Source: Thermoanaerobaculia bacterium
GTDB lineage: Bacteria > Acidobacteriota > Thermoanaerobaculia > Gp7-AA8
DNA length: 64,000 nt
Assembly (NCBI GenBank): GCA_036399695.1
Contig: DASWMP010000345.1
Location: 1,478-65,477 of the forward strand
Reading direction: 5' to 3'
Below are positions 1,628 through 15,597 of this stretch, piece by piece. Made by a program: the position numbers and the translations under genes. Under the pieces are notes generated by a model that ran no database searches, was not told the DNA's origin, and was given only the letters and a program-made list of their open reading frames with translations. Every line of letters starts with the position of its first letter. Position 1 is the first letter of the stretch.

Positions 1628-2980
1628 TCAGTTCGCGCGCCGCGCTGTCCCCGCGCGTGGTGCAACGTCACCACGACTGCCGGCGACGGTCACGCGCGCG
1701 AGCAGCCACTCGAGCTGCATCCGCAGCGCCTGCGGCGAGTACCTGGCCCAGAGCCAGTAGAAGCTGTCGCCCTGCAGCGTGCGCACGCCATCGGGCAGCG
1801 AGAGGCCATGTCCTGCACCGGGGATGACCGCAATCTTGAAGTCCTTGTTCCCCGCCTCGGCCAGGTAGCGCTCCATCCTGGCCACGTTCTCCTCGGGCGG
1901 CGTGACGTAATCATCCCCGCCGTAGAGCGCTAGAAACGGCGTGCGGATCTTCTTCAGGTCGGGCGCCGGATCGTACTGATTGAGGCGCACCCAGAGGATG
2001 TCCTCGTACTGCTCGTTCTCCGGCAGGTCGACGAAGCTCGCCCATCTCGACGCCTTCGCACGCGCAACCGAGGCGCGCAACTCATCCCATCCGTGGCCGG
2101 TGTAGGCGAAGCGGGTGACGAGCGTCATGTGCGCGGCCGCCGCGGCGATCTCCTCGGCAGTGAACCGCAGCTCCGACCGCCGCATCCTCGTCGTGGCCAC
2201 GTGGATCTGCTGGTCCATCACGCTCTCGGCCGGACCGACGGTGGTGATGATGAACGCGAGCGGGACTTTCGTGCGAGTGGCGACGATGGCCGCCACCCAG
2301 CCGCCCGCGCTGTTGCCGCGGAGGCCGATCTGCGCGCGATCGATGTCTTTGCGCGCGGCGAGATGGTCGAGCATCGCCAGGACGTCCGCGGCGTGGTCGT
2401 GCAGACTCGCGGCATCGTGATCGCCGCCCGATTCACCGGCGCCACGCTTGTCGTAGATCAGGCTGGCCACGCCACGCTCGGCGAAGATGCGCGCGAGGCC
2501 GCGCAGCCCGGCACGCGTCGACTTGCCGCGCCCGTGGATCCAGACGACCACCGGATGCGGGCCCGGATTGGCCGGCGTGACGAGCGTCGCCGCGATCGTA
2601 CCGACGCGGACCTCCTCCCACTTCAGCGGAACCACGACCGGCGCGAGCGCCCGCTTGAGGTGCACGCGCGTCGGCGGCGTCCCTTTGCCGGAGGTACCGA
2701 CGAGCTCACCGGCGACGACGTCATGCATCAGCGACGTCGCGCCGTCGAAGTCGAAGGTGACGGTGGCGCCGTTCTGCGTCACCGCGACGACGCGCTCGTT
2801 GTTCAGCCAGTCGGCGTTCTGTACGCGCGCCTTCAGCGCGTCGCCGTCGCGAAAGAACTCGAATCGCACGAGCCGCACCGACGCATCGCGCACCAGGGCC
2901 CCTTCCCACCACCCCTCGACCGGCTCCTGCGCCGTGGCGGTCGTCGACAGGAACAGGAGGAGCAGCAGCAGGCGTCTCAC
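1628..2980 (-). CDS. Secreted alpha/beta-hydrolase (S9 peptidase / dienelactone-hydrolase-like)
   Basis: GTG start giving signal peptide '(M)RRLLLLLLFLSTTATAQEP'. Nucleophile elbow 'GNSAGG' and 'VVWIHGRG'. C-terminal 'GAGHGL'. Confidence 0.55.
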   Translation of the reverse strand: MRRLLLLLLFLSTTATAQEPVEGWWEGALVRDASVRLVRFEFFRDGDALKARVQNADWLNNERVVAVTQNGATVTFDFDGATSLMHDVVAGELVGTSGKGTPPTRVHLKRALAPVVVPLKWEEVRVGTIAATLVTPANPGPHPVVVWIHGRGKSTRAGLRGLARIFAERGVASLIYDKRGAGESGGDHDAASLHDHAADVLAMLDHLAARKDIDRAQIGLRGNSAGGWVAAIVATRTKVPLAFIITTVGPAESVMDQQIHVATTRMRRSELRFTAEEIAAAAAHMTLVTRFAYTGHGWDELRASVARAKASRWASFVDLPENEQYEDILWVRLNQYDPAPDLKKIRTPFLALYGGDDYVTPPEENVARMERYLAEAGNKDFKIAVIPGAGHGLSLPDGVRTLQGDSFYWLWARYSPQALRMQLEWLLARVTVAGSRGDVAPRAGTARRAN

Positions 2981-3181
2981 GAGGAGCCATGCTACCGCTT
3001 CGCGCGCAGGACGCCACCGCCGAGCGGCACCAGCTCGTCCGCGCCGGCGGTCGATTGAGGCCGTGATCGGGAATGAACCCGGGTATGGAAATCGGAATAT
3101 CACCCTCCCGCCAGATCGAAATGGGCGGCCCCCGAAATCCCTTTTCATTGGTGGCGTCCAATACAAATAACGAGGTCCGGC

Positions 3182-4408
3182 ATGACGAAGAACGAGGTCG
3201 TACGAAGAGGCGCAGCCCTGACGTTCGCCGCAGTGTTTCTGACCGCCGGTGCCCTCTTTACGGGCGGCGATGATCCTCGGGCGACCGAGCCGGATGCCGC
3301 GGTACCGTCAATGGTTGCGGCCGCCACGGCAACGACGGCTTCGGCGCCGAACGCGCCCGCCACGACAGTCGCGCCTGCCGACGAGGCGGCCGCCACCGTA
3401 GCGCTCGTGAAGATCGACAATGCCGAGCGCGCCAGGCTGGCCAATGAGATGGCCCGCTGGCAGACCCGTCATCCGCGGCAGCTCGTTGAAGTGATCGCCG
3501 ATCTCGCGGAGAAACAGCCGCTTCCGCTGCCGCCGACGTTCCTCCTCTCCATCGCCTGGTCGGAAACGCGCGGAAAAGTGCTCGCCATCTCGCCTGCCGG
3601 AGCGGCGGGACTGGCGCAGGCGACGCCGTCAGCCTATTTGTCGGAGGGGCTGGACGGGAAGGTCTTCGTGACCACCGACTATCTGACGGGCACGCGCGCT
3701 TTCATCATGAAGAAACCGCTCGGCGACGCACTGACGATTGCCGCGCCGCTCCTCAAGAAGAACACGCCGGCGAACCGTCAGCGCGCGGCGAAGCTCGTCG
3801 CGGAGGCCGTGAAGCTGCGCCGGGAAGGCATGGACGAGCTCGAAGCGCTGCGCCCGGTGGCGAACGAGACGTTCTTCCGCAAGATCGCTGAAGGCGACGC
3901 GCACAACCTGGCCACGCTCCAGGAGCTCGATCAACTGATCGAGCGCGGTGCGCCGCCCGCGGAAATGGCAGCGTTCCATAAGCGCGTCCAGCGTGATTAC
4001 ACCTACCTGCGCAACCTGCAGCGAAACGGCTGGGCCAAGTACGCAAAGGCCCTCGCCACGAAGCGCGACACGCTCCTCCGCGCCCACTTCGGCCAGAGCC
4101 CCGCCGTCGTGATCGCCAATCGCCCCTACGAAGCCGGCGAATACCTCGGCCGCACCCTCGACGCCCGCTTCTCCCCCATAGAAATGGCAGAGTTCCTGGC
4201 CGCCCACCTGACCACGAAACAGCAGCAGGCCCGCGACCTCGGCATCTCCGAGGAGCACCTCCCCGCCTGGACCGCCGCGCTGTACAACGGCGGCGCCGTG
4301 AACGTGAAACGGATGCAGGCGGGCCTGATCGGCTCGCTGCGGGAGACGGATAAGTACATGAAGGCGGTCCCGGCACGCACGGCGCGGTTGGAGCGGGTGC
4401 TGGGGTAA
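3182..4408 (+). CDS. Membrane-anchored lytic transglycosylase (SLT domain) protein
   Basis: N-terminal TM helix. SLT signature 'LLSIAWSETRG...AGAAGLAQATPSAY'. RBS ACGAGGT. Confidence 0.55.
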   Translation: MTKNEVVRRGAALTFAAVFLTAGALFTGGDDPRATEPDAAVPSMVAAATATTASAPNAPATTVAPADEAAATVALVKIDNAERARLANEMARWQTRHPRQLVEVIADLAEKQPLPLPPTFLLSIAWSETRGKVLAISPAGAAGLAQATPSAYLSEGLDGKVFVTTDYLTGTRAFIMKKPLGDALTIAAPLLKKNTPANRQRAAKLVAEAVKLRREGMDELEALRPVANETFFRKIAEGDAHNLATLQELDQLIERGAPPAEMAAFHKRVQRDYTYLRNLQRNGWAKYAKALATKRDTLLRAHFGQSPAVVIANRPYEAGEYLGRTLDARFSPIEMAEFLAAHLTTKQQQARDLGISEEHLPAWTAALYNGGAVNVKRMQAGLIGSLRETDKYMKAVPARTARLERVLG

Positions 4409-4568
4409 AGGGCATCGCGGAACGCCTGCTGGCCGAGCAGCGCCCTCCCGGTCACGAGCCGCAGCAGTGGCGTAATGAGAGGTACGTCACGGCGCGATTT
4501 CGTCGGCGGCTGCAACGTTTCTGTTCATCCACTCACTACATACGGAATCGATCGAGAGGAGAGAACAG

Positions 4569-5477
4569 ATGATGAAACGGGTTCTGGTATTCGTGTGTCT
4601 CGTGTCCATGGCTGCCGTCGCCGCGCAGGCGGGGTTGAACAGGACGGCCGTGTCGCTCGGGGGGAGCGACCTCAATCCCTGCAGTCTGCAGCAGCCGTGT
4701 GCCACGTTTGCCAAGGCCATCTCGGAGACGAATCCGCTCGGGGAGCTGATCGCGCTGGACAGCGGGGGGTATGCCGGGTTTACGGTCGATCGGGGGATGA
4801 CGATCACGGCCGCGCCGGGGGCGGTGGTAACGGTCGGGCCGGAGCCGGGGGTCACGAACTGGGCGATCAAGGTGAACGCGCCGGGCAAGCGGGTCTCGAT
4901 CCGGGGGCTGATGGTCGTGACGGCCGGGTCGTACATCGGGATCGTCGCTCACGACGCGGATACGACGTACATCGACGACGTGGTGATCGAAGGCAGCGGC
5001 TGCGACAACGGCTGCGCGGCCGGGATCTTCGGCCGCAAGGGAGAGGTCTTCGTGAACAACGCCCGCATCCGCAACACGTACACCGGTATCGATCACAACC
5101 CGATGACCGCGAGCACGATGACGATCACGAATTCGAACATCGACCGGGTGGTCTCGAATGGTGTCCTCATCCAGAACTACGGGAAAGGCATCGTTCGGAA
5201 CACGGTCGTCTCGCACGCCGATCGCGCCTTCTCCGTGGCTGCGCTGGCGAAAGACGGCCGCCCGGAACTGACGCTCGTCGACTGCATGGCCACCACGAGC
5301 AATATCGGCGTGAGCATCGGGAACGCCGGCAACTTCTACATGGAGCGCACGGCCGTCACGCGGAACACGATCGGCCTGAACAACGTCGGCGGGTTGGTCG
5401 TGACGCATACGAACAGCATGGTGTCGGGCAATGGGACGAACACCGTCGGGGCGATGACGGCGAATAGTCTGTTGTAA
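4569..5477 (+). CDS. Secreted parallel beta-helix repeat protein
   Basis: Strong RBS GAGAGGAGAGAAC. Signal peptide 'MMKRVLVFVCLVSMAAVAAQA'. Repetitive N/G/T/V-rich beta-helix rungs. Paralogous to the remnant at 515-600. Confidence 0.6.
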   Translation: MMKRVLVFVCLVSMAAVAAQAGLNRTAVSLGGSDLNPCSLQQPCATFAKAISETNPLGELIALDSGGYAGFTVDRGMTITAAPGAVVTVGPEPGVTNWAIKVNAPGKRVSIRGLMVVTAGSYIGIVAHDADTTYIDDVVIEGSGCDNGCAAGIFGRKGEVFVNNARIRNTYTGIDHNPMTASTMTITNSNIDRVVSNGVLIQNYGKGIVRNTVVSHADRAFSVAALAKDGRPELTLVDCMATTSNIGVSIGNAGNFYMERTAVTRNTIGLNNVGGLVVTHTNSMVSGNGTNTVGAMTANSLL

Positions 5478-5574
5478 GCGTGGCGCCCGGGTGGGGGCGA
5501 GTCGGTGACATTCGACCGGCCCCACCCGGTATTCAGTGCAGCTATGCATCTGGGATTGCCGTCCACGTGGAGCA

Positions 5575-5606
5575 GAGCGGTGGCTGGGCGCCACCCCACT
5601 CCGAGA
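5575..5606. repeat. Degenerate REP-like hairpin of family A
   Basis: gagcggtggc tgggc gccaccccactccgag; shares the GCGGTGGC/GCCACCGC/CACTCCGAG core. Confidence 0.4.
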
Positions 5607-5782
5607 CGCTCGATCAGGTTCCAGGAGCACGCGTTGTTGCGTTCACACGCGCTGGAACGGAAACTGTGGCGGCCACGACCGCTCCCGCTCCGCCTGACCG
5701 CGAACACCATTCAAGGATGGCGACCGGGCAGGCCGGGAAACTCCGGAGACGCGGATCTCCTGTGGCAAGGAGAGAGAGAGAC

Positions 5783-6172
5783 ATGGCTTGTAACCCACTG
5801 ATCATCTGGAGACCCATTCCCCCGGGCTCGCGCTTCACACCGTCGACGGACGGCGACGCGAGCGCCTACAACGTGACGGTGTTCATCACGCGCAACGGGC
5901 AGGCGGAACTGCCGTTGCGGCACGGCCAAGTCGCCAGCGAGCAGGCAGAGGTGACGATCGCGGCGGGGGAGGAGTACGTGTTCGACGTCGTGCTGACGTT
6001 GAACCAGGTGCCGGCACAGGGCATCACGCTCGACCTGCGCGTCGTCGGCAATGACAAGCAGCCGGTGAGCGTGGCCGACGGCGCCGGAGGGCAGCGGCCG
6101 GCGAGCTGCTCTTCGTCCTTCAACGATCCGGCGGACTCGCCGATCCTCATCAAAGTGATCGCCCTGGCGTGA
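5783..6172 (+). CDS. Hypothetical small protein (129 aa)
   Basis: RBS GGAGAGAGAGAGAC before the ATG. High GC3 codon usage. Lies immediately upstream of a secreted-protein gene. Confidence 0.45.
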   Translation: MACNPLIIWRPIPPGSRFTPSTDGDASAYNVTVFITRNGQAELPLRHGQVASEQAEVTIAAGEEYVFDVVLTLNQVPAQGITLDLRVVGNDKQPVSVADGAGGQRPASCSSSFNDPADSPILIKVIALA

Positions 6173-6180
6173 GGATGACG

Positions 6181-7572
6181 ATGAAGACCGCCAGTGCACT
6201 GCTCCTCACGCTTCTCACCGCAATGCTGTTCGCCGCTCCGCTGCAGGCGCAAACGACGCCCCTCTGCGACGAGTCCGACACGCCGCTGAGCTGCTGGCTG
6301 AAGTACAACCCCGCGCCCAGGGAGGCAGCCACGCAGGTAGCCGCCGTCACGCAGCAAAGGGTCGCGGCGGCGAACACCGGTGCGCCGGGTGTCCTCTCCC
6401 CCGCGAGCTCCGCGGTGAAGGACTTCCTCTCGCTCCTCAGCGCGTCGCTGGAGTCGTCGACGACTTCGTCGAACGGCCAGGTGCTCACCTTCGATTACAA
6501 CCCCGATGTCGAAATCCTCGGCACGCCCGACGCCCTGAAGCTGCAGGTCTCCTTCGCCAAACCGGAGCTCAACGCCAAGTACACGGCCGCCCTGGCGACC
6601 AACGCCGCGGCGCTGCAGAGCGCGAACGACGACCTGACGAACACGGACGACATCACCTTCGTCGGCAGCTTTCAGCCCACGAGCCGTCTGTTCGGCCGCA
6701 GCATCGAGCCGCACCGCCCGCTGTTCGAAGCGATGCTCATCTCGCAGGTGCCGACGACGGACCTCGCCGCGCGCAACGCCGCCCTGGTCGAGGCCGTCAA
6801 GGCCGGCGGCATCATGTCGGAGACGCAGACCTTCGGGTCCATCCCGGTGGCCACCCGCGCGCCGACGATCGTCGCCTTCGAGAACGCCGCCCGCCAGCAG
6901 GCCGCGATGCGGAAGCCGCTGAAGGCATTCAGCGACGTCTTCGCCAGGCTGCTGAACAACCAGCCGCAGCTCTACGCCTCCGGCATCTACGAGGCACGTA
7001 AGAACATCGCCGGCCCGAATACGTTCAGCGGCAAAGTGACGTACGAGATGGGAGCGAAGAACCTCAACGGCTTCCGCCGTAAGTTCGGCACGACGTGCAA
7101 CGAGACGACCATCGCCGACAGCGCCACCGCCGACAGATGCGCCACCCTGCTCGCCACCTATGCCGGCGCCGCCAGCTCCGTGGACGACCGCCTGGTCTTT
7201 TCGCTCCAGTACGACCGCTCCGACCAGCGCTGGATCTCCGACCCGGCGCTCGGCCTGGACTTCGGCTATCCCCGCACCACGAGCCTCGTCTACGAGGTGA
7301 AGTACGGCCGCACGATGAACGGCGCCATCACCGGCACGACGAACGGCCGCCTCGACGCCACGGTCAAGTACGAGGACGTGATGGACGACGGCGACCCGGC
7401 CAACGACATCTCCTCCCGCACCACCGGCTCGCTGACCTACACGCTCAAAATCAACGACACCGTCAACCTCCCTCTGTCCCTGGTCTACGCCAGCGACCCG
7501 GCCGACCTGACCGACACGAACCGCAAACTGAACGCCCACTTCGGCCTGGTCCTCAAGCTGCCGACGAAGTGA
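6181..7572 (+). CDS. Secreted hypothetical protein (about 464 aa)
   Basis: RBS GAGGA before the ATG. Signal peptide 'MKTASALLLTLLTAMLFAAPLQAQ'. Alternative in-frame starts at 6169 and 6175. Confidence 0.5.
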   Translation: MKTASALLLTLLTAMLFAAPLQAQTTPLCDESDTPLSCWLKYNPAPREAATQVAAVTQQRVAAANTGAPGVLSPASSAVKDFLSLLSASLESSTTSSNGQVLTFDYNPDVEILGTPDALKLQVSFAKPELNAKYTAALATNAAALQSANDDLTNTDDITFVGSFQPTSRLFGRSIEPHRPLFEAMLISQVPTTDLAARNAALVEAVKAGGIMSETQTFGSIPVATRAPTIVAFENAARQQAAMRKPLKAFSDVFARLLNNQPQLYASGIYEARKNIAGPNTFSGKVTYEMGAKNLNGFRRKFGTTCNETTIADSATADRCATLLATYAGAASSVDDRLVFSLQYDRSDQRWISDPALGLDFGYPRTTSLVYEVKYGRTMNGAITGTTNGRLDATVKYEDVMDDGDPANDISSRTTGSLTYTLKINDTVNLPLSLVYASDPADLTDTNRKLNAHFGLVLKLPTK

Positions 7573-7629: not shown

Positions 7630-8061
7630 CTACTGCCCCGCTTCGCGCTCCTTCGCCAGCTCGTAATTGCGGCGCCACTGTTCCGCGCGATCCGGCGGCA
7701 GATTCGCGGCGCGGATCGTGATCGGCAGGCGCACACGCCCGCGCAGGATCGTGAGCCGCAGGACGTCACCCGGCTTACGTGTGGCGAAGAACTGCAGGGC
7801 CGCTTTGTCCGTGACGAAGGAGAGAGGGCGGTCGTTGAGGCCGACGACGACATCCTGCACCCGCAAGCCCGCTTTCGCTGCCGGTCCGCCGGTTTCGACA
7901 CGGTGAATGTAGAGCCACTGGCTGACCGCCGCTTTCGGCTCGACGTGCCGGTTGAATCCGAAGCCGTACCAGCCGGGCGGCTGAGGCGTCGCCGCGGCCA
8001 TCGAGCTGGCCGTGCTCAGAGCGAGAGCTGCGACACAGATCAATCGTCGGAGATCCGTCAT
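7630..8061 (-). CDS. Secreted PDZ-domain protein
   Basis: Signal peptide 'LICVAALALSTASSMAA'. PDZ-like 'VETGGPAAKAGLRVQDVVVGLNDRPL...GDVLRLTILRG'. Confidence 0.55.
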   Translation of the reverse strand: MTDLRRLICVAALALSTASSMAAATPQPPGWYGFGFNRHVEPKAAVSQWLYIHRVETGGPAAKAGLRVQDVVVGLNDRPLSFVTDKAALQFFATRKPGDVLRLTILRGRVRLPITIRAANLPPDRAEQWRRNYELAKEREAGQ

Positions 8062-8068
8062 GTCATCC

Positions 8069-10201
8069 TCATTTCGCCGAAGGCCAGAGAGAGCTGCCGT
8101 CGATACGTACGATGCCCCCCGGCGTCACGCGTGCCGTAATGCATCGGTTGCCGGGAGCCGGTCCGGCGCACACCTGGTACTCGCCGGGCTCCAGCGCTAA
8201 GCGGAAGGCCCCGTCGCGGAACTCGCGCGCGGGTCCGGGCTGCGATGCGGGCGAGAAGAGAAAGGGAAGGGGCAGCGCCATGTCACCTCGGCGAACAAAG
8301 GGCCACGGAGGTGCGCCCGCCAGGACGATGGCCAGCTCGCCGGCGCTGGGATCGATGCGGATCTCCGCCGGATCGTCGTGCAGCGAGATCCGCTCCAGCT
8401 TCAGCGGCAGCCCAGGCGCGACGATCGCGACGTCGAGCGTGCTGCTGCCGGCCGGTACTTCGGCCATGAACGAGCCGCTCGGTCCCGTGACGTACTCGCG
8501 CAGCCGCCCCTGAGCGAACGCGCGGATCATCGCACCGACGACAGGCAGGCCGTCAGTGCGCCGTACGAGCACGCGTACGGTCGACGGCGGCCGGACCGTC
8601 AGCGTCGTCTCCGTTGCTCCGGACTCCCTGACGGTTACGGCCACACGCTCGCTTTCAGCGCGAGCCGTTCGGGCGCGCACGCTCATCTCGCCCGGGCGGA
8701 GGCCGTACAGGGTGAACGAGCCGTCGTCCGCCGAAGCAGCATTCGCCTCGAATTCCGTACCGCGCAGCACGACCACGTCAGCCCCGGCAATGGCCGACCC
8801 GAATTCATCGACAACCTTTCCTTCGATCCGTCCGCCCGGAAGCACGACGTCAACCGTTGCGACCTCTTCGCCTTCCCGGCGGTGGACGTCGGCGTGCGTC
8901 CGTACCTGCTGCAAGCCGCTCTTGGGCGTCACGCGCACGCGCCACTGCCCCTCCTCCGGAACGGCACCGGCGAACTCTCCCTGCGCGTTCGAATGCAGGA
9001 CGATGCTGCGGCCGCGCGAGTCGAAGTTGAGCCGTCCCTCGACCGGCTGCGTTCCGACGAGCACGGTGCCTCGAACCGGCACCTCGCCGACCGCGATCGT
9101 AACGTGCTCGAGGTCCGTCCGGATGTCGACCTCACGCGCGGCGACGACGGAGCCCGACGCGACGACCGCCAGCCGATAACGGCCACGTTCGAGACCCTTG
9201 GCCGACCATTCGCCCGTCGCCGTTGCTGCACCTGACGTCACACGTTCCCGTCCGGTTCCTCGCGTCGTGAATCGGTCGAGCTCCACCCGCCACCTCTGCT
9301 CGGGGGCAGGCGTCGCCGGTGTCAGCCGCGTCTCCAGCACCGCCAGCGGCATGAGCAGCAACGGATCTTCGAGCACCGTCTCTTGTGCTTCGCGTACGCG
9401 CAGCTCCTCCAGCCGCGCGGGCGACGCATCCTTTGCGTGCGCGGCCAGAGTGAACACACCCGCCGGAACGCCGACGATCTGGAAGAACCCGCGTGCCGTC
9501 GCCCGCGCGCTCAGGACCCGCGTCTGCAGCCGCCGGCGTGTCGCCTCGTCGCCCCCATGGACGGATGGACTCAGCTCGACGGCGATCGGCTCCGCGGAAG
9601 GAGTGTTGCGCGAGACCCATCCGGCCACGGAGCCCCCCTGCTCGAACAGTATCGCGCCGAGGGAACGTGCCCCTTCCGGGGTGACGTCCCAGAGATACAC
9701 AGGAGCGAATCCGGAAGCGACCAGCCGCACATCGAGGGACGTTGCGGGCACGGCGCACGTCCATGTGTTGCCGTCGACCGTGCAGGAAGTCTCGGTTGTG
9801 TCGACAGCGGCGCTCCCCGGCGGCGACTGGATGACGGCGCGCAACGCCGCCGGCGGCCGAATGCCCGGCCGCGTCTTTAGCTCCCCCCGAAGCACTGCCT
9901 TCGGCCAGACGCGCAAAACGGCCGTCGTGTCATCGGCAACCGCATCGACGACGAGCGGCGCCGCCCAGCAGTCCGGAGAGTCGAGCGTAACGCGCCAGTC
10001 GGCGCCGGCGGCCAGCGCCAGCTTCGCGCCGCGCTCCAGTACCTGTGCAGTGCGCGCCGCTTCGCCGTCTGCTCCGATCGTTTCGGCTCGCAGCACGCCA
10101 GTACAGCGGCTGGCCGCGTCGTTCACCGGTGCCACGACGACGTGACCTTCAGCCGGCGCACCGGCCACCATCAGCACCGCGAGAATCGGTAGAAGGCTCA
10201 T
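8069..10201 (-). CDS. Large secreted protein with multiple carboxypeptidase-regulatory-like (prealbumin-fold) domains
   Basis: Start chosen at 'MSLLPILAVLMVAGAPAEG' (signal peptide); the longer N-terminal extension of the ORF is not signal-like. Repeated 'GRIEGKVVDEFGSAIAGADVVVL...DGSFTLYGLRPG' CarboxypepD_reg-type motifs. Confidence 0.6.
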   Translation of the reverse strand: MSLLPILAVLMVAGAPAEGHVVVAPVNDAASRCTGVLRAETIGADGEAARTAQVLERGAKLALAAGADWRVTLDSPDCWAAPLVVDAVADDTTAVLRVWPKAVLRGELKTRPGIRPPAALRAVIQSPPGSAAVDTTETSCTVDGNTWTCAVPATSLDVRLVASGFAPVYLWDVTPEGARSLGAILFEQGGSVAGWVSRNTPSAEPIAVELSPSVHGGDEATRRRLQTRVLSARATARGFFQIVGVPAGVFTLAAHAKDASPARLEELRVREAQETVLEDPLLLMPLAVLETRLTPATPAPEQRWRVELDRFTTRGTGRERVTSGAATATGEWSAKGLERGRYRLAVVASGSVVAAREVDIRTDLEHVTIAVGEVPVRGTVLVGTQPVEGRLNFDSRGRSIVLHSNAQGEFAGAVPEEGQWRVRVTPKSGLQQVRTHADVHRREGEEVATVDVVLPGGRIEGKVVDEFGSAIAGADVVVLRGTEFEANAASADDGSFTLYGLRPGEMSVRARTARAESERVAVTVRESGATETTLTVRPPSTVRVLVRRTDGLPVVGAMIRAFAQGRLREYVTGPSGSFMAEVPAGSSTLDVAIVAPGLPLKLERISLHDDPAEIRIDPSAGELAIVLAGAPPWPFVRRGDMALPLPFLFSPASQPGPAREFRDGAFRLALEPGEYQVCAGPAPGNRCITARVTPGGIVRIDGSSLWPSAK

Positions 10202-10217
10202 GTGGGGCGCGGGCGCC

Positions 10218-10478
10218 TCAGACCTGATAGCAGGGAGTGCCTTCACACCGCGGGAAATCGCAGAACCATCCACCGTTTGCATACCGGTAGCAGGTCTGCC
10301 GCTCGGTGCAATCGGCCATCGAGCCCGAGCCCGTCAGCATCTCGTAACAATGCGCATGGCAGCTCGTCTGTGTCTGATCGCATCCGGTCTCACACACGTA
10401 GGAGCAGGCCAGCGCGACAGGACTGAGGCTGAAGCACGTGACGATCGCAAGGACGATGATCACTGACGGCCGGCGCAT
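10218..10478 (-). CDS. Small Cys-rich secreted peptide (86 aa; 12 Cys in the roughly 62-aa mature part)
   Basis: Perfect RBS GGAACGGAGGTAGAC before the ATG. Signal peptide 'MRRPSVIIVLAIVTCFSLSPVALA'. Mature part 'CSYVCETGCDQTQTSCHAHCYEMLTGSGSMADCTERQTCYRYANGGWFCDFPRCEGTPCYQV'. Its stop lies 16 nt before the start of the next gene. Confidence 0.6.
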   Translation of the reverse strand: MRRPSVIIVLAIVTCFSLSPVALACSYVCETGCDQTQTSCHAHCYEMLTGSGSMADCTERQTCYRYANGGWFCDFPRCEGTPCYQV

Positions 10479-10584
10479 GTCTACCTCCGTTCCAGAGGGT
10501 GAATCGCGTTCACATTGAGATGGAAAGATATCCTACTACCACTCTTCCTGCGGCAGTACGCCTCGTAAGACAGCGACAAGCCGT

Positions 10585-10660
10585 CTCGGAGTGCGGTGGC
10601 GCATAGCCACCGCTCTGGCACACGTGGGAGAGGAGCGGTGGCTCACCGCCGCCGCACTCG
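10585..10660. repeat. Two adjacent REP-like hairpins of family A
   Basis: ctcggagtgcggtggcgcatagccaccgctc and gagcggtggctcaccgccgccgcactc. Confidence 0.55.
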
Positions 10661-10664
10661 TAGA

Positions 10665-11614: not shown

Positions 11615-11842
11615 GGCCGGTAGTGTAGCGCGTCGGCCTACCCGTGCAGGCAGACGCGAAACGTCGGGCTCGGCCGGTCATTCATCACAACCGCTCTGCG
11701 TCCACAGGTAGGGAAAACGCGGGTTCTGGCCCTCCTTCTATGACACCGCAATGAATTGGCTGTGCGTCGTGCGCTGCGCTCATCGGGACGCAGGTTGCTC
11801 GAAACGTGTGCGCGTCGATGCCCGTCAGGAGGCTATGGCCCA

Positions 11843-13066
11843 ATGAAGATCGAGATCCAGGTCAACAACAGTGTCAGCCCGAGTGCGCGATTCGTGTCGT
11901 GGGCGCCGTCGCCCTGCCGCGTGCGCATTACCGATCCGTCGGGGGCCACGGGGGCGAACGTCAGCGTGCAGATCGCCAGCACGTCGGCGGCCAGTGCCGG
12001 GGCGGTGGTGTTCCGCAAAGGGACGACGGGCGCGTTCGCGGCTACGTTGACGTTGCCGGTGCCGGCCAACGGCACGTCCGTCGCCTTTTTCACGGTCGGC
12101 AAGTTCGGGCGTCCGAGCACGAGCCCGGGCGACGTGAGAATTCAGGCGCGCGTCGGCACAACGGTGATCGAGACGGTGCCGGTCATGGTGCGGGTACGCA
12201 AGGACGCGAACACGCTCACGCCGGGAGAACGGGACCGCGTCGTATCGGCCTTCGCGCAGCTCAACAACCAGGGGACCGGCCGGTTCACCGACTTCCGCGA
12301 CATGCATACGAACGCGAGCTCGCCGCAGGCGCACGGCGCGGCGGGGTTCCTGCCGTGGCATCGCGCGTACCTGCTCGACCTCGAGCGCGAGCTGCAGGCT
12401 GTCGACGCGAGCGTGTCGCTACCGTATTGGCGCTTCGACCGTCCCGCGCCGAACCTCTTCACACGCGAGTTCCTCGGCGTCTCCGACAACCTCGGCACGG
12501 TGCGTTTCAGCCCCACGAATCCGTTGCAGTTCTGGCGAACGGACGGAGTGCAGGGCATCAATCGGCGGCCGTTCTTCAGTACCACCGTGGCGCCTCCGGG
12601 CCTGCTGAACGAGAACGACACCATCGGCCTCGGCACGCGCTACGCCGTCTTCCGGAACATGGAAGGCAACCCTCACGGCATGGCGCACACGAGCTTCGGC
12701 GGCTCGATTTCCAGCATCAGCACGGCCGCGCGCGATCCGCTGTTCTTCCTGCTGCACTGCAACGTCGACCGCCTCTGGGCGAAGTGGCAGCGCAAGAACG
12801 GGCGCTTCGATCCCGCGGTCGCGGCGTCGTACGACACACAGGCGTCCAACCCGATCGGCCACCGGCTCGGTGACACGATGTGGCCGTGGAACGGGATCAC
12901 GGGCGGACAACGGCCGCCGACCGCGCCTGGCGGTGCGCTGGCGAATTCGCCCGTCGTCACCGCGCCGGGCCCGCAGCCGCTCGTCCAGAGCAGCCTCGAT
13001 TACCAGGGCGCCGTCAACGCTCTGTCCCGCATGGGCTTCGACTACGACGACGTGGCGTTTGCGTAA
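11843..13066 (+). CDS. Tyrosinase (type-3 copper polyphenol oxidase) with an N-terminal Ig-like extension
   Basis: RBS GGAGG 11 nt before the ATG. CuA 'HTNASSPQAHGAAGFLPWHRAYL'. CuB 'HGMAHTSFGG...LFFLLHCNVDRLWAKWQRK'. No signal or Tat motif. Confidence 0.8.
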   Translation: MKIEIQVNNSVSPSARFVSWAPSPCRVRITDPSGATGANVSVQIASTSAASAGAVVFRKGTTGAFAATLTLPVPANGTSVAFFTVGKFGRPSTSPGDVRIQARVGTTVIETVPVMVRVRKDANTLTPGERDRVVSAFAQLNNQGTGRFTDFRDMHTNASSPQAHGAAGFLPWHRAYLLDLERELQAVDASVSLPYWRFDRPAPNLFTREFLGVSDNLGTVRFSPTNPLQFWRTDGVQGINRRPFFSTTVAPPGLLNENDTIGLGTRYAVFRNMEGNPHGMAHTSFGGSISSISTAARDPLFFLLHCNVDRLWAKWQRKNGRFDPAVAASYDTQASNPIGHRLGDTMWPWNGITGGQRPPTAPGGALANSPVVTAPGPQPLVQSSLDYQGAVNALSRMGFDYDDVAFA

Positions 13067-13081
13067 GCCAGAGGAGAATCA

Positions 13082-13951
13082 ATGACGACGACACGCAAGC
13101 GCCCGACCCGTTCATCCAAATCAGGCAAACTGGCGAAAGCCGCCAAGTCCGCGGCGTCCGGCGTGAAGCAGACGGTCAAACAACGCGTGGCCGCCATCGC
13201 GCAGAGTCCGCTCGCGGTGTGTGACAGCGACAAGGAGCTGCAGAAGACGCTCGACCTCCTGCGCGACGAGAACGAGCAGGTGCCGGTGCGCCTGGCCGCG
13301 CTGCAGTCGTTGCAGGCGGCGAGCTTCAGCGTCGTGGCCTTCGAGTCGTGCCGCGCCGACTACATCGGTACGCTGCGCGAGGTCGCGGAAGACCCCGATC
13401 CCGAGCTGCGCCAGCGGGTGCTCGGCATCCTCGCGCGGGAGAAAGACGGCTTCGCGCAACTGAAGCTCATCGAAGGGCTCGAGGACCCGTCGAAGGCGCT
13501 GGTCCCGCCGGAGAAGGCGCTGCAGTTGCTCAGCTACGACGTGCACGCGGAAGCGTACGCCGTGGCGCGCGACATCATCGCCCAGCCGCCGAACGAAGAC
13601 GCACGGCGCGAAGCCCTGCGCCTGCTCGCCGCCGATGCCACGGCCGCGCCGGTGTTCGAGAAGCTGTTGCGCGACAAGGACGAACAGGCGGAGATCCGCC
13701 AGCTTTCGGCCTCCGCGCTCCAGGCGCTGAAGCCGGAGAAGCTGCAGAGCCATGCACGCGAGATCCTGCTCGACGCGACGGACTACGACGAGATCAAGGC
13801 CACGAGTCTGACGGCGATGACGCAGTTCGGCGATGCCGCGTCGGTGGCGAACGACGACGAATTACGAGACACGGTCGATCAGATGAGTGCCGAGGCTTCA
13901 CCGAAAGTGAAACAGACGGCGAAGCGGTTCAACATCAAGTACAGCCGGTAA
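13082..13951 (+). CDS. HEAT/PBS-lyase-type helical repeat protein
   Basis: RBS GAGGAGAATCA before the ATG. Repeated 'xxVRxxALQSLxxxxD' helical units. Begins 16 nt after the tyrosinase stop. Confidence 0.5.
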   Translation: MTTTRKRPTRSSKSGKLAKAAKSAASGVKQTVKQRVAAIAQSPLAVCDSDKELQKTLDLLRDENEQVPVRLAALQSLQAASFSVVAFESCRADYIGTLREVAEDPDPELRQRVLGILAREKDGFAQLKLIEGLEDPSKALVPPEKALQLLSYDVHAEAYAVARDIIAQPPNEDARREALRLLAADATAAPVFEKLLRDKDEQAEIRQLSASALQALKPEKLQSHAREILLDATDYDEIKATSLTAMTQFGDAASVANDDELRDTVDQMSAEASPKVKQTAKRFNIKYSR

Positions 13952-13956
13952 TCGCG

Positions 13957-15597
13957 ATGACCGTCGCCGGCGTGGAGTCAGAAGCAACGTTCGCGGGACT
14001 GGTGGAGCGCCTGGTCGCCGATGCGGACCGTCGCGAGCAGTTGACGGAGCTGTTGCGGGAGGAGCATCCGCTCTACGAGCAGCGTGGCACCGCTACGACC
14101 GTCCGGATGCGCGGCTGGATTCTGCTCGCGCTGGCGCGCACGGGCGTGCCGGACGAGGCGCTGCTCTTCGTGCTCGAGGAGCTGGAGAGCGGCGTCGATC
14201 CGTATCTCGTGGCCGCGGCGGCGCGCGCACTTCGCAGCTATCCGCGGCCGAAAGCGGCGTTCGCGCCGCTCCTGCTGCGCGCGCTCGGGAACATCCGCTT
14301 TCGCGATGAACGGGTGTCGCTGGACCGGTATGGCGCATATGCCGTCGGGCCGGTCGGCACGACGCCTGTGCGTGAATTGCTGGCGACGCTGGCGTGGCTC
14401 GGCCCGCACGCGCGGGCGGTGCGTGCCGATCTGGAGTTGCTGCGGCAGGATCGCGGTCTCGCACGCAAGTACGGCGATGACCTGGACGCCGCGCTGGCGG
14501 CCATCCGCGGCGGTGACGATGCGGCAGAGCATGGCGCCGATTCCTGTTGCGAGCTGCCCGGCGGCATTCAGGGATCGCGCTGGTGGCCGTTCGCCAATCG
14601 TGCCGGCGCCGAGGACGTGGAGGGCGTCGGCTTCGAGGATCACGACGGGACGGCCAGCACATTCAAGGAGCTGTTCCGCGGTCGCGTCTCGATCGTGGTG
14701 TTCTTCTACACGCGCTGCGACAACCCGCTCAAGTGCTCGCTGACGGTCTCGAAGCTCGCGCGGGTGCAGCAACTGCTGGAGGAGCGCGGGCTGGCCGGCC
14801 GGATCGCGACGGCCGCGATCACGTACGATCCGGCCTTCGACGTGCCGGAGCGGCTGCGCGTGTACGGGAAGGACCGGCGGGTGCGCATGGATGGCGACCA
14901 CCGGATGCTCCGGGCGGTCGACGGCCTCGACACGCTGCGCCGCTACTTCGGCCTCGGCGTGAACTTCATCGAGTCGCTCGTGAACCGGCATCGCATCGAG
15001 GCGTACGTTCTCGACGCCGAGGGGCGCATCGCCGCGTCGTTCGAACGGCTGCAGTGGGATGAAGAAGCGTTGGTGGATCGCAGCGTCGCCGTCATGGAGG
15101 AGCAGCGCGAGACGGAACCGGAGGCGCCGGCGAAGGCTGGCTCCACGAAACGGAAAGTCGCGTTCCCGATGCTCGCAACAATGGCCAGCATCGCCCTGGC
15201 GTTCTTCCCGAAGTGTCCGGTGTGCTGGGCCGCGTATCTGAGCCTGTTCGGCGTCGCGGGGTTGAACCAGATTCCGTATTCGCCCTGGCTCCAACCCGCC
15301 ATCGCGGCGCTGGTGCTCGTGAACGTCGCCACGGTGTGGCTGCGCGGACGCGCGACGCGGCGGCTGACGGGGTTCTATCTCGTGACTGCCGGCGCGCTGG
15401 TGACGCTTTCGAGCGTGACGCTCGGGTGGAAGAGCGTCTCGGCGATCGGGATCATCCTGACGATGGCGGGTTCGCTCGTGAGCGCGCGACGGCTACAAAG
15501 CGGATCGGCGCCGTCGCGTGTCTCTCGCGCGCGTGGGTCAGGCGGCCTGAGTGAGGAGCTGCTGCCAAGGATCGCTGATCCCAAGATCCCGGGCTAG
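13957..15597 (+). CDS. Fusion protein: HEAT-like N-terminus, SCO1/SenC-like thioredoxin-fold domain, and a C-terminal multi-TM domain with a CPVC motif
   Basis: ATG 5 nt after the previous stop. SCO-like 'FEDHDGTASTFKELFRGRVSIVVFFYTRCDNPLKCSLT...ITYDPAFDVPERLRVYGK'. TM region 'ALAFFPKCPVCWAAYLSLFGVAG'. The longer track ORF from 13348 runs in an alternate frame across the previous gene. Confidence 0.5.
   Translation: MTVAGVESEATFAGLVERLVADADRREQLTELLREEHPLYEQRGTATTVRMRGWILLALARTGVPDEALLFVLEELESGVDPYLVAAAARALRSYPRPKAAFAPLLLRALGNIRFRDERVSLDRYGAYAVGPVGTTPVRELLATLAWLGPHARAVRADLELLRQDRGLARKYGDDLDAALAAIRGGDDAAEHGADSCCELPGGIQGSRWWPFANRAGAEDVEGVGFEDHDGTASTFKELFRGRVSIVVFFYTRCDNPLKCSLTVSKLARVQQLLEERGLAGRIATAAITYDPAFDVPERLRVYGKDRRVRMDGDHRMLRAVDGLDTLRRYFGLGVNFIESLVNRHRIEAYVLDAEGRIAASFERLQWDEEALVDRSVAVMEEQRETEPEAPAKAGSTKRKVAFPMLATMASIALAFFPKCPVCWAAYLSLFGVAGLNQIPYSPWLQPAIAALVLVNVATVWLRGRATRRLTGFYLVTAGALVTLSSVTLGWKSVSAIGIILTMAGSLVSARRLQSGSAPSRVSRARGSGGLSEELLPRIADPKIPG

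Follow-up and report, generated by a model that had tools for sequence, protein, structure and literature searches.

A three-gene cassette in Thermoanaerobaculia encoding an exported cysteine-rich mini-protein, a transthyretin-like repeat protein and a stand-alone PDZ protein

The three genes described here lie on the minus strand of a 64,000-nucleotide (nt) stretch of contig DASWMP010000345.1 (positions 1,478 to 65,477 of the contig; assembly GCA_036399695.1) from a Thermoanaerobaculia bacterium; the whole stretch is called the window below, and coordinates refer to it. The first gene (10218..10478, minus strand; stop codon 10218-10220) encodes an 86-amino-acid (aa) cysteine-rich precursor, the mini-protein. 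An earlier note, made from the sequence alone, had placed its stop codon 16 nt before the next gene, and the same distance was measured to the ATG (10199-10201) of an exported 710-aa protein with about eight tandem transthyretin-like (CarboxypepD_reg) β-sandwich domains (8069..10201, minus strand), referred to as the large protein. Seven nt past the stop codon of the large gene begins the gene for a stand-alone exported PDZ protein of 143 aa (7630..8061, minus strand), with a DegS/HtrA-type PDZ domain and a C-terminal WxRN helix.

The mini-protein gene was recognized from its open reading frame (ORF) and translation, its homologues and its G+C content at third codon positions (GC3). The ideal GGAGG ribosome-binding site claimed for it was found at 10484..10488 (minus strand), 5 nt 5′ of the ATG. 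By sequence reading, the N-terminus consists of MRRPS, a hydrophobic core and ALA directly before the first mature cysteine, a canonical Sec signal peptide with n-, h- and c-regions (residues 1-24, MRRPSVIIVLAIVTCFSLSPVALA followed by C; codons 10407..10478, minus strand), and all homologues begin with a comparable signal peptide; the cleavable signal peptide of the earlier note holds. The mature part after ALA, residues 25-86, has the length of about 62 aa that had been proposed (10221..10406, minus strand). The cysteine count had to be corrected: there are 11 cysteines in the precursor and 10 in the mature 62 aa, rather than 12. The cysteine pattern given before survived in part, in that CxxxC is present, whereas the spacings (3, 3, 6, 3, 12, 5, 9, 4, 4) do not yield the C..C and C.C elements. 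Across the family the residues preceding the first cysteine are ALA, LNA, AIG, QAQ, TNG, PLG and SRA. These do not conform to the lipobox [LVI][ASTVI][GAS]C, the Leu at -3 not being conserved and Gln standing at -1 in two members; because homologues carry such non-lipobox residues (QAQ, TNG), cleavage by signal peptidase I rather than lipoprotein processing is indicated.

Short length, the lack of a database family and a first word-indexed search with the single mini-protein, which returned only itself, could suggest that the small frame is no gene at all. This has next to no probability and was already refuted by conservation: homologues at 33-53% identity share eight invariant cysteines, and position and orientation are kept in at least 11 loci. 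The strong ribosome-binding site speaks against it as well, as do the GC3, which peaks in the annotated frame (0.747), and the fact that independent annotation pipelines also called the ORF as a gene. Read from its sequence, the mini-protein is a real, exported, cysteine-rich gene product.

A full HMMER scan of 1.84 billion representatives recovered seven small homologues (83-90 aa, 34-49% identity), and a profile search of 5.8 billion proteins put the family at about 10 clusters, all of them from Thermoanaerobaculia/Acidobacteriota. Additional copies were read directly in further loci (L016, L018, L019, L035, L036 and L037; loci outside the window are numbered with an L throughout). The earlier note had made its case depend on the conservation of the small ORF in related genomes, and conserved it is. 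A 4745-aa protein (P0027) that reached an E-value of 1.5e-5 over 15 stretches was rejected as a homologue, its repeat GEGWSC...GTSCTQ aligning two of the five cysteines in the segment; the low E-value results from repetition, since single stretches score only 25-31 bits. No match to the mini-protein was obtained among Pfam, NCBIfam or PADLOC models, or by tblastn against plasmid and phage collections. The PADLOC defence models gave no match for the large protein or the PDZ protein either.

The ten mature cysteines lie at residues 25, 29, 33, 40, 44, 57, 63, 73, 78 and 83. In the family alignment eight cysteines are invariant, together with A42 and G80, and the tenfold set of the window protein is completed by the lineage-specific pair C33/C40, which is present or absent as a pair and was confined to the window protein, P0022 and the remnant at L003. 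All 17 mature sequences tabulated contain either 8 or 10 cysteines and never an odd number. Taken together, the even count, the Sec export and the pairwise gain of extra cysteines point to disulfides and not to metal ligands.

A metal-binding or redox mini-protein, in which the cysteines would act as thiolate ligands or as a redox relay tied to neighbouring copper genes, is very unlikely. It could draw on a mature domain that is 16% cysteine, on the A-H-C motif frequent at C44, and on the window genes for tyrosinase, SCO1/SenC and a HEAT-repeat protein, which are no more than 5 kb away. However, copper genes adjoin the cassette only in the window and in its close relative L006, CxC and CxxC clusters are lacking, His43 is not invariant, and the even, pairwise-extended cysteine set belongs to a Sec-exported protein. 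Moreover, the mini-protein is rich in aromatic residues (12-19% in the 17 mature sequences; 8/62 in the window), and metallothioneins classically lack them. Identification as a metallothionein was rejected on the absence of CxC/CxxC, the aromatics, the Sec export and the even cysteine count, and the metal-binding peptide suggested in the earlier note found no support. A link to the tyrosinase and SCO1 genes was likewise rejected, the adjacency being restricted to the window lineage. The copper-related cluster itself occupies 11756-15597 (plus strand) and comprises the tyrosinase, the HEAT-repeat protein and an SCO1/SenC protein apparently with a C-terminal membrane region; DUF3574 and YcxB genes lie between it and the cassette. 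Tyrosinase, DUF3574 and YcxB genes are also found upstream in L006, and in no other cassette locus.

The structure of the mini-protein was predicted with AlphaFold2 (AF2) from an 11-sequence alignment. The mature part was modelled as all-β with a mean predicted local distance difference test score (pLDDT) of 78.7, the core blocks reaching 81-95; the only helix spans residues 5-16, within the signal peptide. Strands 27-33 and 40-46 form a hairpin, in which C29/C44 and C33/C40, judged from the strand limits, would be cross-strand partners in the same register. The predicted fold had no match in the PDB, and a PDB sequence search with the family profile gave chance antibody matches only (E>0.1). 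The mini-protein founds a new and tiny family, possibly with a new fold, and the cassette that encodes it is a very rare one of soil Acidobacteriota. The net charge of the mature mini-protein is -4 in the window and -2 to -7 in the family, with one member at 0. Described before as knottin- or defensin-like, the mini-protein belongs to neither group, having no Pfam or PDB match, being anionic and lacking a mature helix. For the knottin or inhibitor cystine knot, defined by a core of about 30 aa with six cysteines in I-IV, II-V, III-VI connectivity, no match in sequence or fold to known families was obtained; for the defensins, the net charge of -4, the modelled mature part without helix and the missing Pfam match were decisive. 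A precursor of a ribosomally synthesized and post-translationally modified peptide (RiPP) of the SCIFF/ranthipeptide kind was also rejected: a Sec signal is present, no maturase gene occurs in the window neighbourhood or in the other loci, and none of the NCBIfam RiPP models matched.

The 710-aa product agrees with the secreted prealbumin-fold repeat protein that had been proposed. It scored 101.9 bits against Pfam CarboxypepD_reg (PF13620; cut-off 32.3), above the gathering score, and its model (pLDDT 86.2, predicted template-modelling score (pTM) 0.74) shows about eight of the seven-strand β-sandwiches typical of CarboxypepD_reg/transthyretin-like repeats. Only β-sandwich domains were detected, with no catalytic or enzymatic domain among them. 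Three cysteine pairs are conserved in the large-protein alignment; because the conserved cysteines form pairs, no free thiol is expected. Similarity to S-layer glycoproteins was limited to generic sandwich domains (Kustd1514 family, 42.7 bits vs 1400; SlaB, 16.8 vs 700), and this assignment was rejected.

The third gene, correctly announced before as encoding a secreted PDZ protein, exceeded the gathering scores of three Pfam models (PDZ_6, 36.2 against 27; PDZ, 34.3 against 23.2; PDZ_2, 33.3 against 27). It has the G-Phi-G-Phi carboxylate-binding loop of PDZ domains, G-W-Y-G-F-G-F at residues 30-36 (7954..7974, minus strand), conserved in all orthologues as P/G-W-[YLF]-G-[FLMI]-[GA]-[FY]. All PDZ orthologues carry signal peptides, and the isoelectric point (pI) is 10.6 in the window and 9.9-10.6 among orthologues. 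The best NCBIfam similarities were to the PDZ domains of DegS, DegP and HtrA; a DegS/HtrA serine protease was rejected, as the protein consists of a signal peptide and a PDZ domain only and scores 20-30 bits against cut-offs of at least 400.

The order mini-protein, large protein, PDZ protein was found in the window and in L003, L004, L007, L010, L014, L016, L035, L036 and L037, neighbouring genes being spaced or overlapping by no more than about 35 nt; L019 is a deletion remnant, and the triad as a whole recurs in at least 11 loci. According to the gene tables, the flanking genes differ in every locus of this mini-protein family (family A), and it is because of these differing flanks that the triad is regarded as a self-contained cassette. 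Three diverged paralogous cassettes reside in one metagenome-assembled genome (GCA_036380735.1). The three proteins diverge in parallel: identities of the mini-protein, large protein and PDZ protein between the window and L004 were 53, 43 and 51%, and between the window and L007 they were 36, 37 and 44%. Recurrence beside unrelated flanks and parallel divergence tie the mini-protein functionally to the large protein and the PDZ protein, which makes the dedicated binding scaffold of the earlier note a fair description. The processing scaffold offered along with it is not, no protease or other enzyme domain having been found in any of the three proteins.

Several cassettes were found in decay. 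At L003 the 5′ half of a mini-protein gene has been overwritten by the 3′ end of the upstream gene (database tag PF26745, SPM); what is left of this paralogous gene (5732-5995) lacks the signal peptide and the first two cysteine codons and retains 55 intact codons ending in CEGTPCYQV. L006, a relative at 81% identity, has an S8 peptidase gene (2482-5976; 1164 aa) where the mini-protein gene and codons 1-190 of the large gene would be expected, and an S8 peptidase gene also stands directly upstream of the cassette in L016. L019 (2500-3100) has suffered a deletion, so that the large gene passes at about residue 562 straight into the final 18 codons of the PDZ gene, and a 147-bp tandem repeat (2764-3043) follows the junction.

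The C-terminal tail of the mini-protein was then compared across the family, numbering the last residue P0 and the residues inward P-1 and P-2, so that the last cysteine stands at P-3. In the window the tail reads C-Y-Q-V-COOH (codons 10221..10232, minus strand). All 19 family sequences end exactly three residues after the last cysteine; Y or F occupies P-2 in 18 of them, and V, I or A occupies P0, likewise in 18; P-1 is unconstrained (Q, E, L, D, M, Y, I, W), giving the pattern C-[Y/F]-x-[V/I/A]. The tails seen are CYQV, CYEV, CYLV, CYDV, CFMV, CYYV, CYMV, CYWV, CFEV, CYIA, CYMI, CFIS and CALA. With a free C-terminus, a hydrophobic P0 and a hydrophobic or aromatic P-2, the family tails match class II/DegS-type PDZ ligands in sequence, and the tail pLDDT of 68, against 81-95 in the core, would fit an end that is exposed. 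Both the large proteins and the PDZ proteins terminate in polar sequence that is not conserved, so the mini-protein is the only plausible PDZ ligand within the cassette. A basic PDZ protein (pI 9.9-10.6) here faces a mini-protein of net charge -2 to -7. The outlying loci are also informative: the L014 mini-protein falls below detection by the hidden Markov model (HMM) of the family yet ends in CFEV, and its PDZ gene is kept; the L015 mini-protein has a 39-aa extension after CILV, and no PDZ gene is present; L017 has neither a mini-protein nor a PDZ gene. From these sequence features we infer that the PDZ protein would dock the C-terminal tail of the mini-protein.

On this basis we tentatively favour an exported, non-enzymatic complex composed of a disulfide-locked mini-protein, a β-sandwich scaffold and a PDZ adaptor that would read the tail, as a plausible working explanation and not with confidence. 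The three genes would be transcribed together as a self-contained unit, Sec carrying each of their products into the periplasm or beyond. The mini-protein would fold as a small all-β domain with four family-wide disulfides, to which a fifth, C33-C40, would be added in the window lineage as a staple of the first hairpin. It would serve as a structured ligand or subunit, being neither an enzyme nor a membrane-active peptide, and its only free invariant linear feature would be the tail (an aromatic residue, any residue, a small aliphatic residue and the free carboxylate). The basic PDZ domain, with its intact G-Phi-G-Phi loop, would dock this tail by β-strand addition, and the 710-aa protein would be non-catalytic, binding or presenting its cognate mini-protein as a scaffold or carrier. 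The genes, their export signals, conservation and synteny, the cysteine and tail patterns and the domain composition are observed; the disulfides, the PDZ-tail docking and the ternary complex are what we infer. The biological output would most likely be an accessory envelope or extracellular binding module.

A number of observations weigh against the proposed complex. The mini-protein model was built on 11 sequences and has a pTM of 0.51, and the disulfide pairing suggested for it rests on strand limits rather than coordinates. Two of the tails, CFIS and CALA, deviate from the pattern. In a neighbour-joining tree of the large proteins, the PDZ-bearing loci all fall in one clade; because the PDZ maps to a single clade, the co-occurrence of tail and PDZ gene amounts largely to one evolutionary event plus the outliers L014 and L015. 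An aromatic-x-aliphatic C-terminal strand can be conserved for structure alone. PDZ grooves usually engage four to five ligand residues, and the cysteine at P-3 is presumably locked in a disulfide, leaving three residues free. Finally, because the cassette decays readily (L003, L006, L019), its role must be dispensable.

Some of these observations would also fit three co-expressed envelope proteins that make no PDZ-tail contact, an alternative that we consider possible though improbable. The tail would then be the last β-strand of the mini-protein, and the PDZ domain would bind outer-membrane-protein tails, the large protein or lipid; with similarly low probability, the cassette as a whole would be a structural or quality-control envelope module, for example a lattice- or S-layer-like one. 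Fixed P0 and P-2 with a free P-1 is indeed the pattern of any β-strand with a buried face, just three residues follow the last cysteine, and, besides the confinement of the PDZ gain to one clade, a distant clade of large proteins keeps an upstream mini-protein gene with no adjoining PDZ gene. On the other hand, the S-layer similarity is confined to generic sandwich domains (42.7 vs 1400 bits), and multiple paralogues per genome together with frequent decay argue against an essential lattice. The contrast between L014, which keeps both tail and PDZ gene, and the clade-adjacent L015, where the tail is extended and the PDZ gene is missing, also speaks for docking.

The distant relatives of the large protein (26-30% identity; L023-L034) were found to have a different secreted cysteine-rich mini-protein directly upstream. 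This type-B mini-protein, encoded directly upstream of the large-protein relative in L023-L028, L030 and L032-L034 (for example L026, 881-1264), has a signal peptide, the motif CExC...ETGxTxC..., a Gly-rich linker and the segment CQTxGFCPAECFSCSGGGGRPAV, and found no counterpart among the models of Pfam and NCBIfam. A distant relationship of type B to family A was rejected, hhalign aligning the signal peptides only. The mini-proteins of L029 and L015 represent further types. No PDZ was detected beside the distant large-protein relatives, and an all-against-all BLAST of the flanking ORFs in 16 metagenome loci (L019-L034) revealed no other conserved flanking gene. The deepest conserved unit is thus the cysteine-rich exported mini-protein with the multi-transthyretin-like protein, which implies that the PDZ gene was added in the clade of the window. 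In L038 a distant large-protein relative has no upstream mini-protein and no PDZ; a secreted 132-aa ORF with seven cysteines lies downstream of it (4810-5208).

The main rival to the proposed complex is an effector role. The mini-protein would then be a disulfide-stabilized warhead (a toxin, a peptide directed at competitors, or an agent inhibiting foreign proteases or lysozymes), with the sandwich protein as carrier, receptor or protector and the PDZ protein as a chaperone keeping the tail masked until release. Secreted cysteine-rich mini-proteins of at least three other kinds (type B, L029 and L015), all missed by the family-A HMM, precede homologous large proteins, which resembles the swapping of warheads on a constant carrier. 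Three diverged paralogous cassettes in one genome, frequent decay with GC3 lower than that of the neighbours, as is typical of accessory or competition loci, and the S8 peptidase genes directly upstream in L016 and L006 can be added to this. Nevertheless, the cassette has no conserved companion gene for an immunity-like membrane protein, an exporter or outer-membrane secretion. Its anionic character sets the mini-protein apart from most membrane-active antimicrobial peptides, and its divergence in family A does not outpace that of its partners, hence gives no sign of an arms race. Pfam, NCBIfam and PADLOC related it to no family of toxins, bacteriocins or inhibitors, and it matched neither a PDB fold nor an entry of the phage and plasmid collections. 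An effector role is rated unlikely. A Sec-dependent or class II bacteriocin in particular is disfavoured, as neither a conserved membrane immunity gene nor an ATP-binding-cassette (ABC) transporter gene was found in any locus, and the toxin or bacteriocin of the earlier note found no support for the same lack of conserved immunity or export genes.

A bolder version can be sketched, which we regard as speculative and doubtful: a hitherto undescribed modular exported system in which a constant carrier of about eight transthyretin-like domains would be combined with at least four interchangeable types of cysteine-rich mini-protein, as warheads or ligands (family A, the CPAECFSC type and two more), one clade having latched its mini-protein through Tyr-x-Val to a dedicated stand-alone periplasmic PDZ. 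If true, it would be the first operon-encoded PDZ-ligand pair of such kind in bacteria, with a mini-protein fold unseen in the PDB.

Further features were recorded around the cassette. A structured leader/intergenic region of 186 nt (10479..10664, minus strand; fold z-score -4.45) parts it from the upstream YcxB gene and contains a terminator-like hairpin at 10534-10558 (minus strand); no Rfam family matched in the operon or the leader. The 64-kb window contains two copies of a 46-nt hairpin-forming element, inverted relative to each other and 87% identical, one at 5563-5608 (plus strand) and one within the leader at 10582-10627 (minus strand). Both are placed immediately 3′ of a flanking gene that is convergent, and the two bracket a 5-kb segment made up of the cassette and two unrelated genes. 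The element could be a terminator resembling repetitive extragenic palindromic (REP) sequences or a cassette boundary; it was not found in the other loci. A 467-aa signal-peptide protein of no Pfam or NCBIfam family (6169-7572, plus strand) converges on the cassette and is not next to it in other lineages. Downstream of the PDZ gene in L007 (10616-12567), a 199-aa protein with a weak Sigma70_r2 match is followed by a 451-aa tetratricopeptide-repeat (TPR) protein; they may be a pair resembling extracytoplasmic function (ECF) sigma genes, which is confined to this locus and not conserved elsewhere. The GC3 of the cassette (0.75-0.81, against 0.85-0.93 in neighbouring genes) is compatible with lateral acquisition or low expression.

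In the literature searched on CarboxypepD_reg, PDZ and cysteine-rich proteins and on Acidobacteria/Thermoanaerobaculia, no account of the mini-protein or the cassette was found, nor was a family model or a solved structure for either. The components (Sec signal, disulfide-rich mini-domain, transthyretin-like repeats, PDZ) are of already known kinds. Should the proposed complex be true, it would add a new family of disulfide-rich mini-proteins, whose fold may be new as well, from uncultured soil Acidobacteriota, a phylum whose envelope and secreted proteins are almost unstudied; disulfide-rich folds are valued as stable scaffolds. It would also provide a clean, genetically linked bacterial PDZ-ligand pair as a model for stand-alone extracytoplasmic PDZ proteins. 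The unrelated cysteine-rich mini-proteins before homologous sandwich proteins hint at a modular carrier-plus-ligand system. The finding has no bearing on any long-standing open question.

Among known systems, the mini-protein shares with knottins, defensins and Sec-dependent bacteriocins a length of about 60 aa, the cysteine density and the cleavable signal peptide. It differs from them in having no sequence or fold match, 8-10 differently spaced cysteines, an anionic character and no mature helix, and it differs from Sec-dependent bacteriocins in that no immunity or transport genes are linked to it. The large protein is comparable to the transthyretin-like, CarboxypepD_reg or CnaB-type sandwich arrays of Gram-positive pilins, the B-repeats of microbial surface components recognizing adhesive matrix molecules (MSCRAMMs), the transthyretin-like domain of carboxypeptidase D, NOMO and the N-terminal extension of SusC. 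In contrast to these, it lacks isopeptide and sortase motifs, a TonB-dependent barrel, a peptidase domain and any cell-wall or PEP-CTERM anchor; its pTM of 0.74 suggests that the domains are set against one another in a more defined way than beads on a string, and its obligatory upstream cysteine-rich mini-protein gene has no counterpart there.

The PDZ protein is best compared with DegS, whose PDZ domain reads the C-terminal Y-x-F tails of outer-membrane proteins in the sigma-E envelope stress pathway. Like DegS/HtrA, the cassette has an extracytoplasmic bacterial PDZ domain with a G-Phi-G-Phi carboxylate loop, and its proposed ligand likewise would be a free C-terminus in which P-2 is aromatic and P0 hydrophobic, Y-x-V as against Y-x-F in DegS. 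The cassette PDZ protein differs in standing alone, with 119 aa in its mature form and neither a protease domain nor a membrane anchor, and in its putative ligand, a dedicated, co-encoded and folded disulfide mini-protein instead of unfolded porins. There is also no conserved sigma/anti-sigma output, the weak ECF-like gene being found downstream in L007 only. A second parallel is the chaperone-usher protein PapD, which anchors the terminal carboxylate of a pilin subunit beside a conserved penultimate Tyr. The cassette would employ a PDZ domain as its reader in place of an Ig-like (immunoglobulin-like) chaperone, and it includes neither an usher gene nor a donor-strand motif; what the two would have in common is a periplasmic partner that reads the free carboxylate and the C-terminal aromatic residue of a co-encoded exported subunit.

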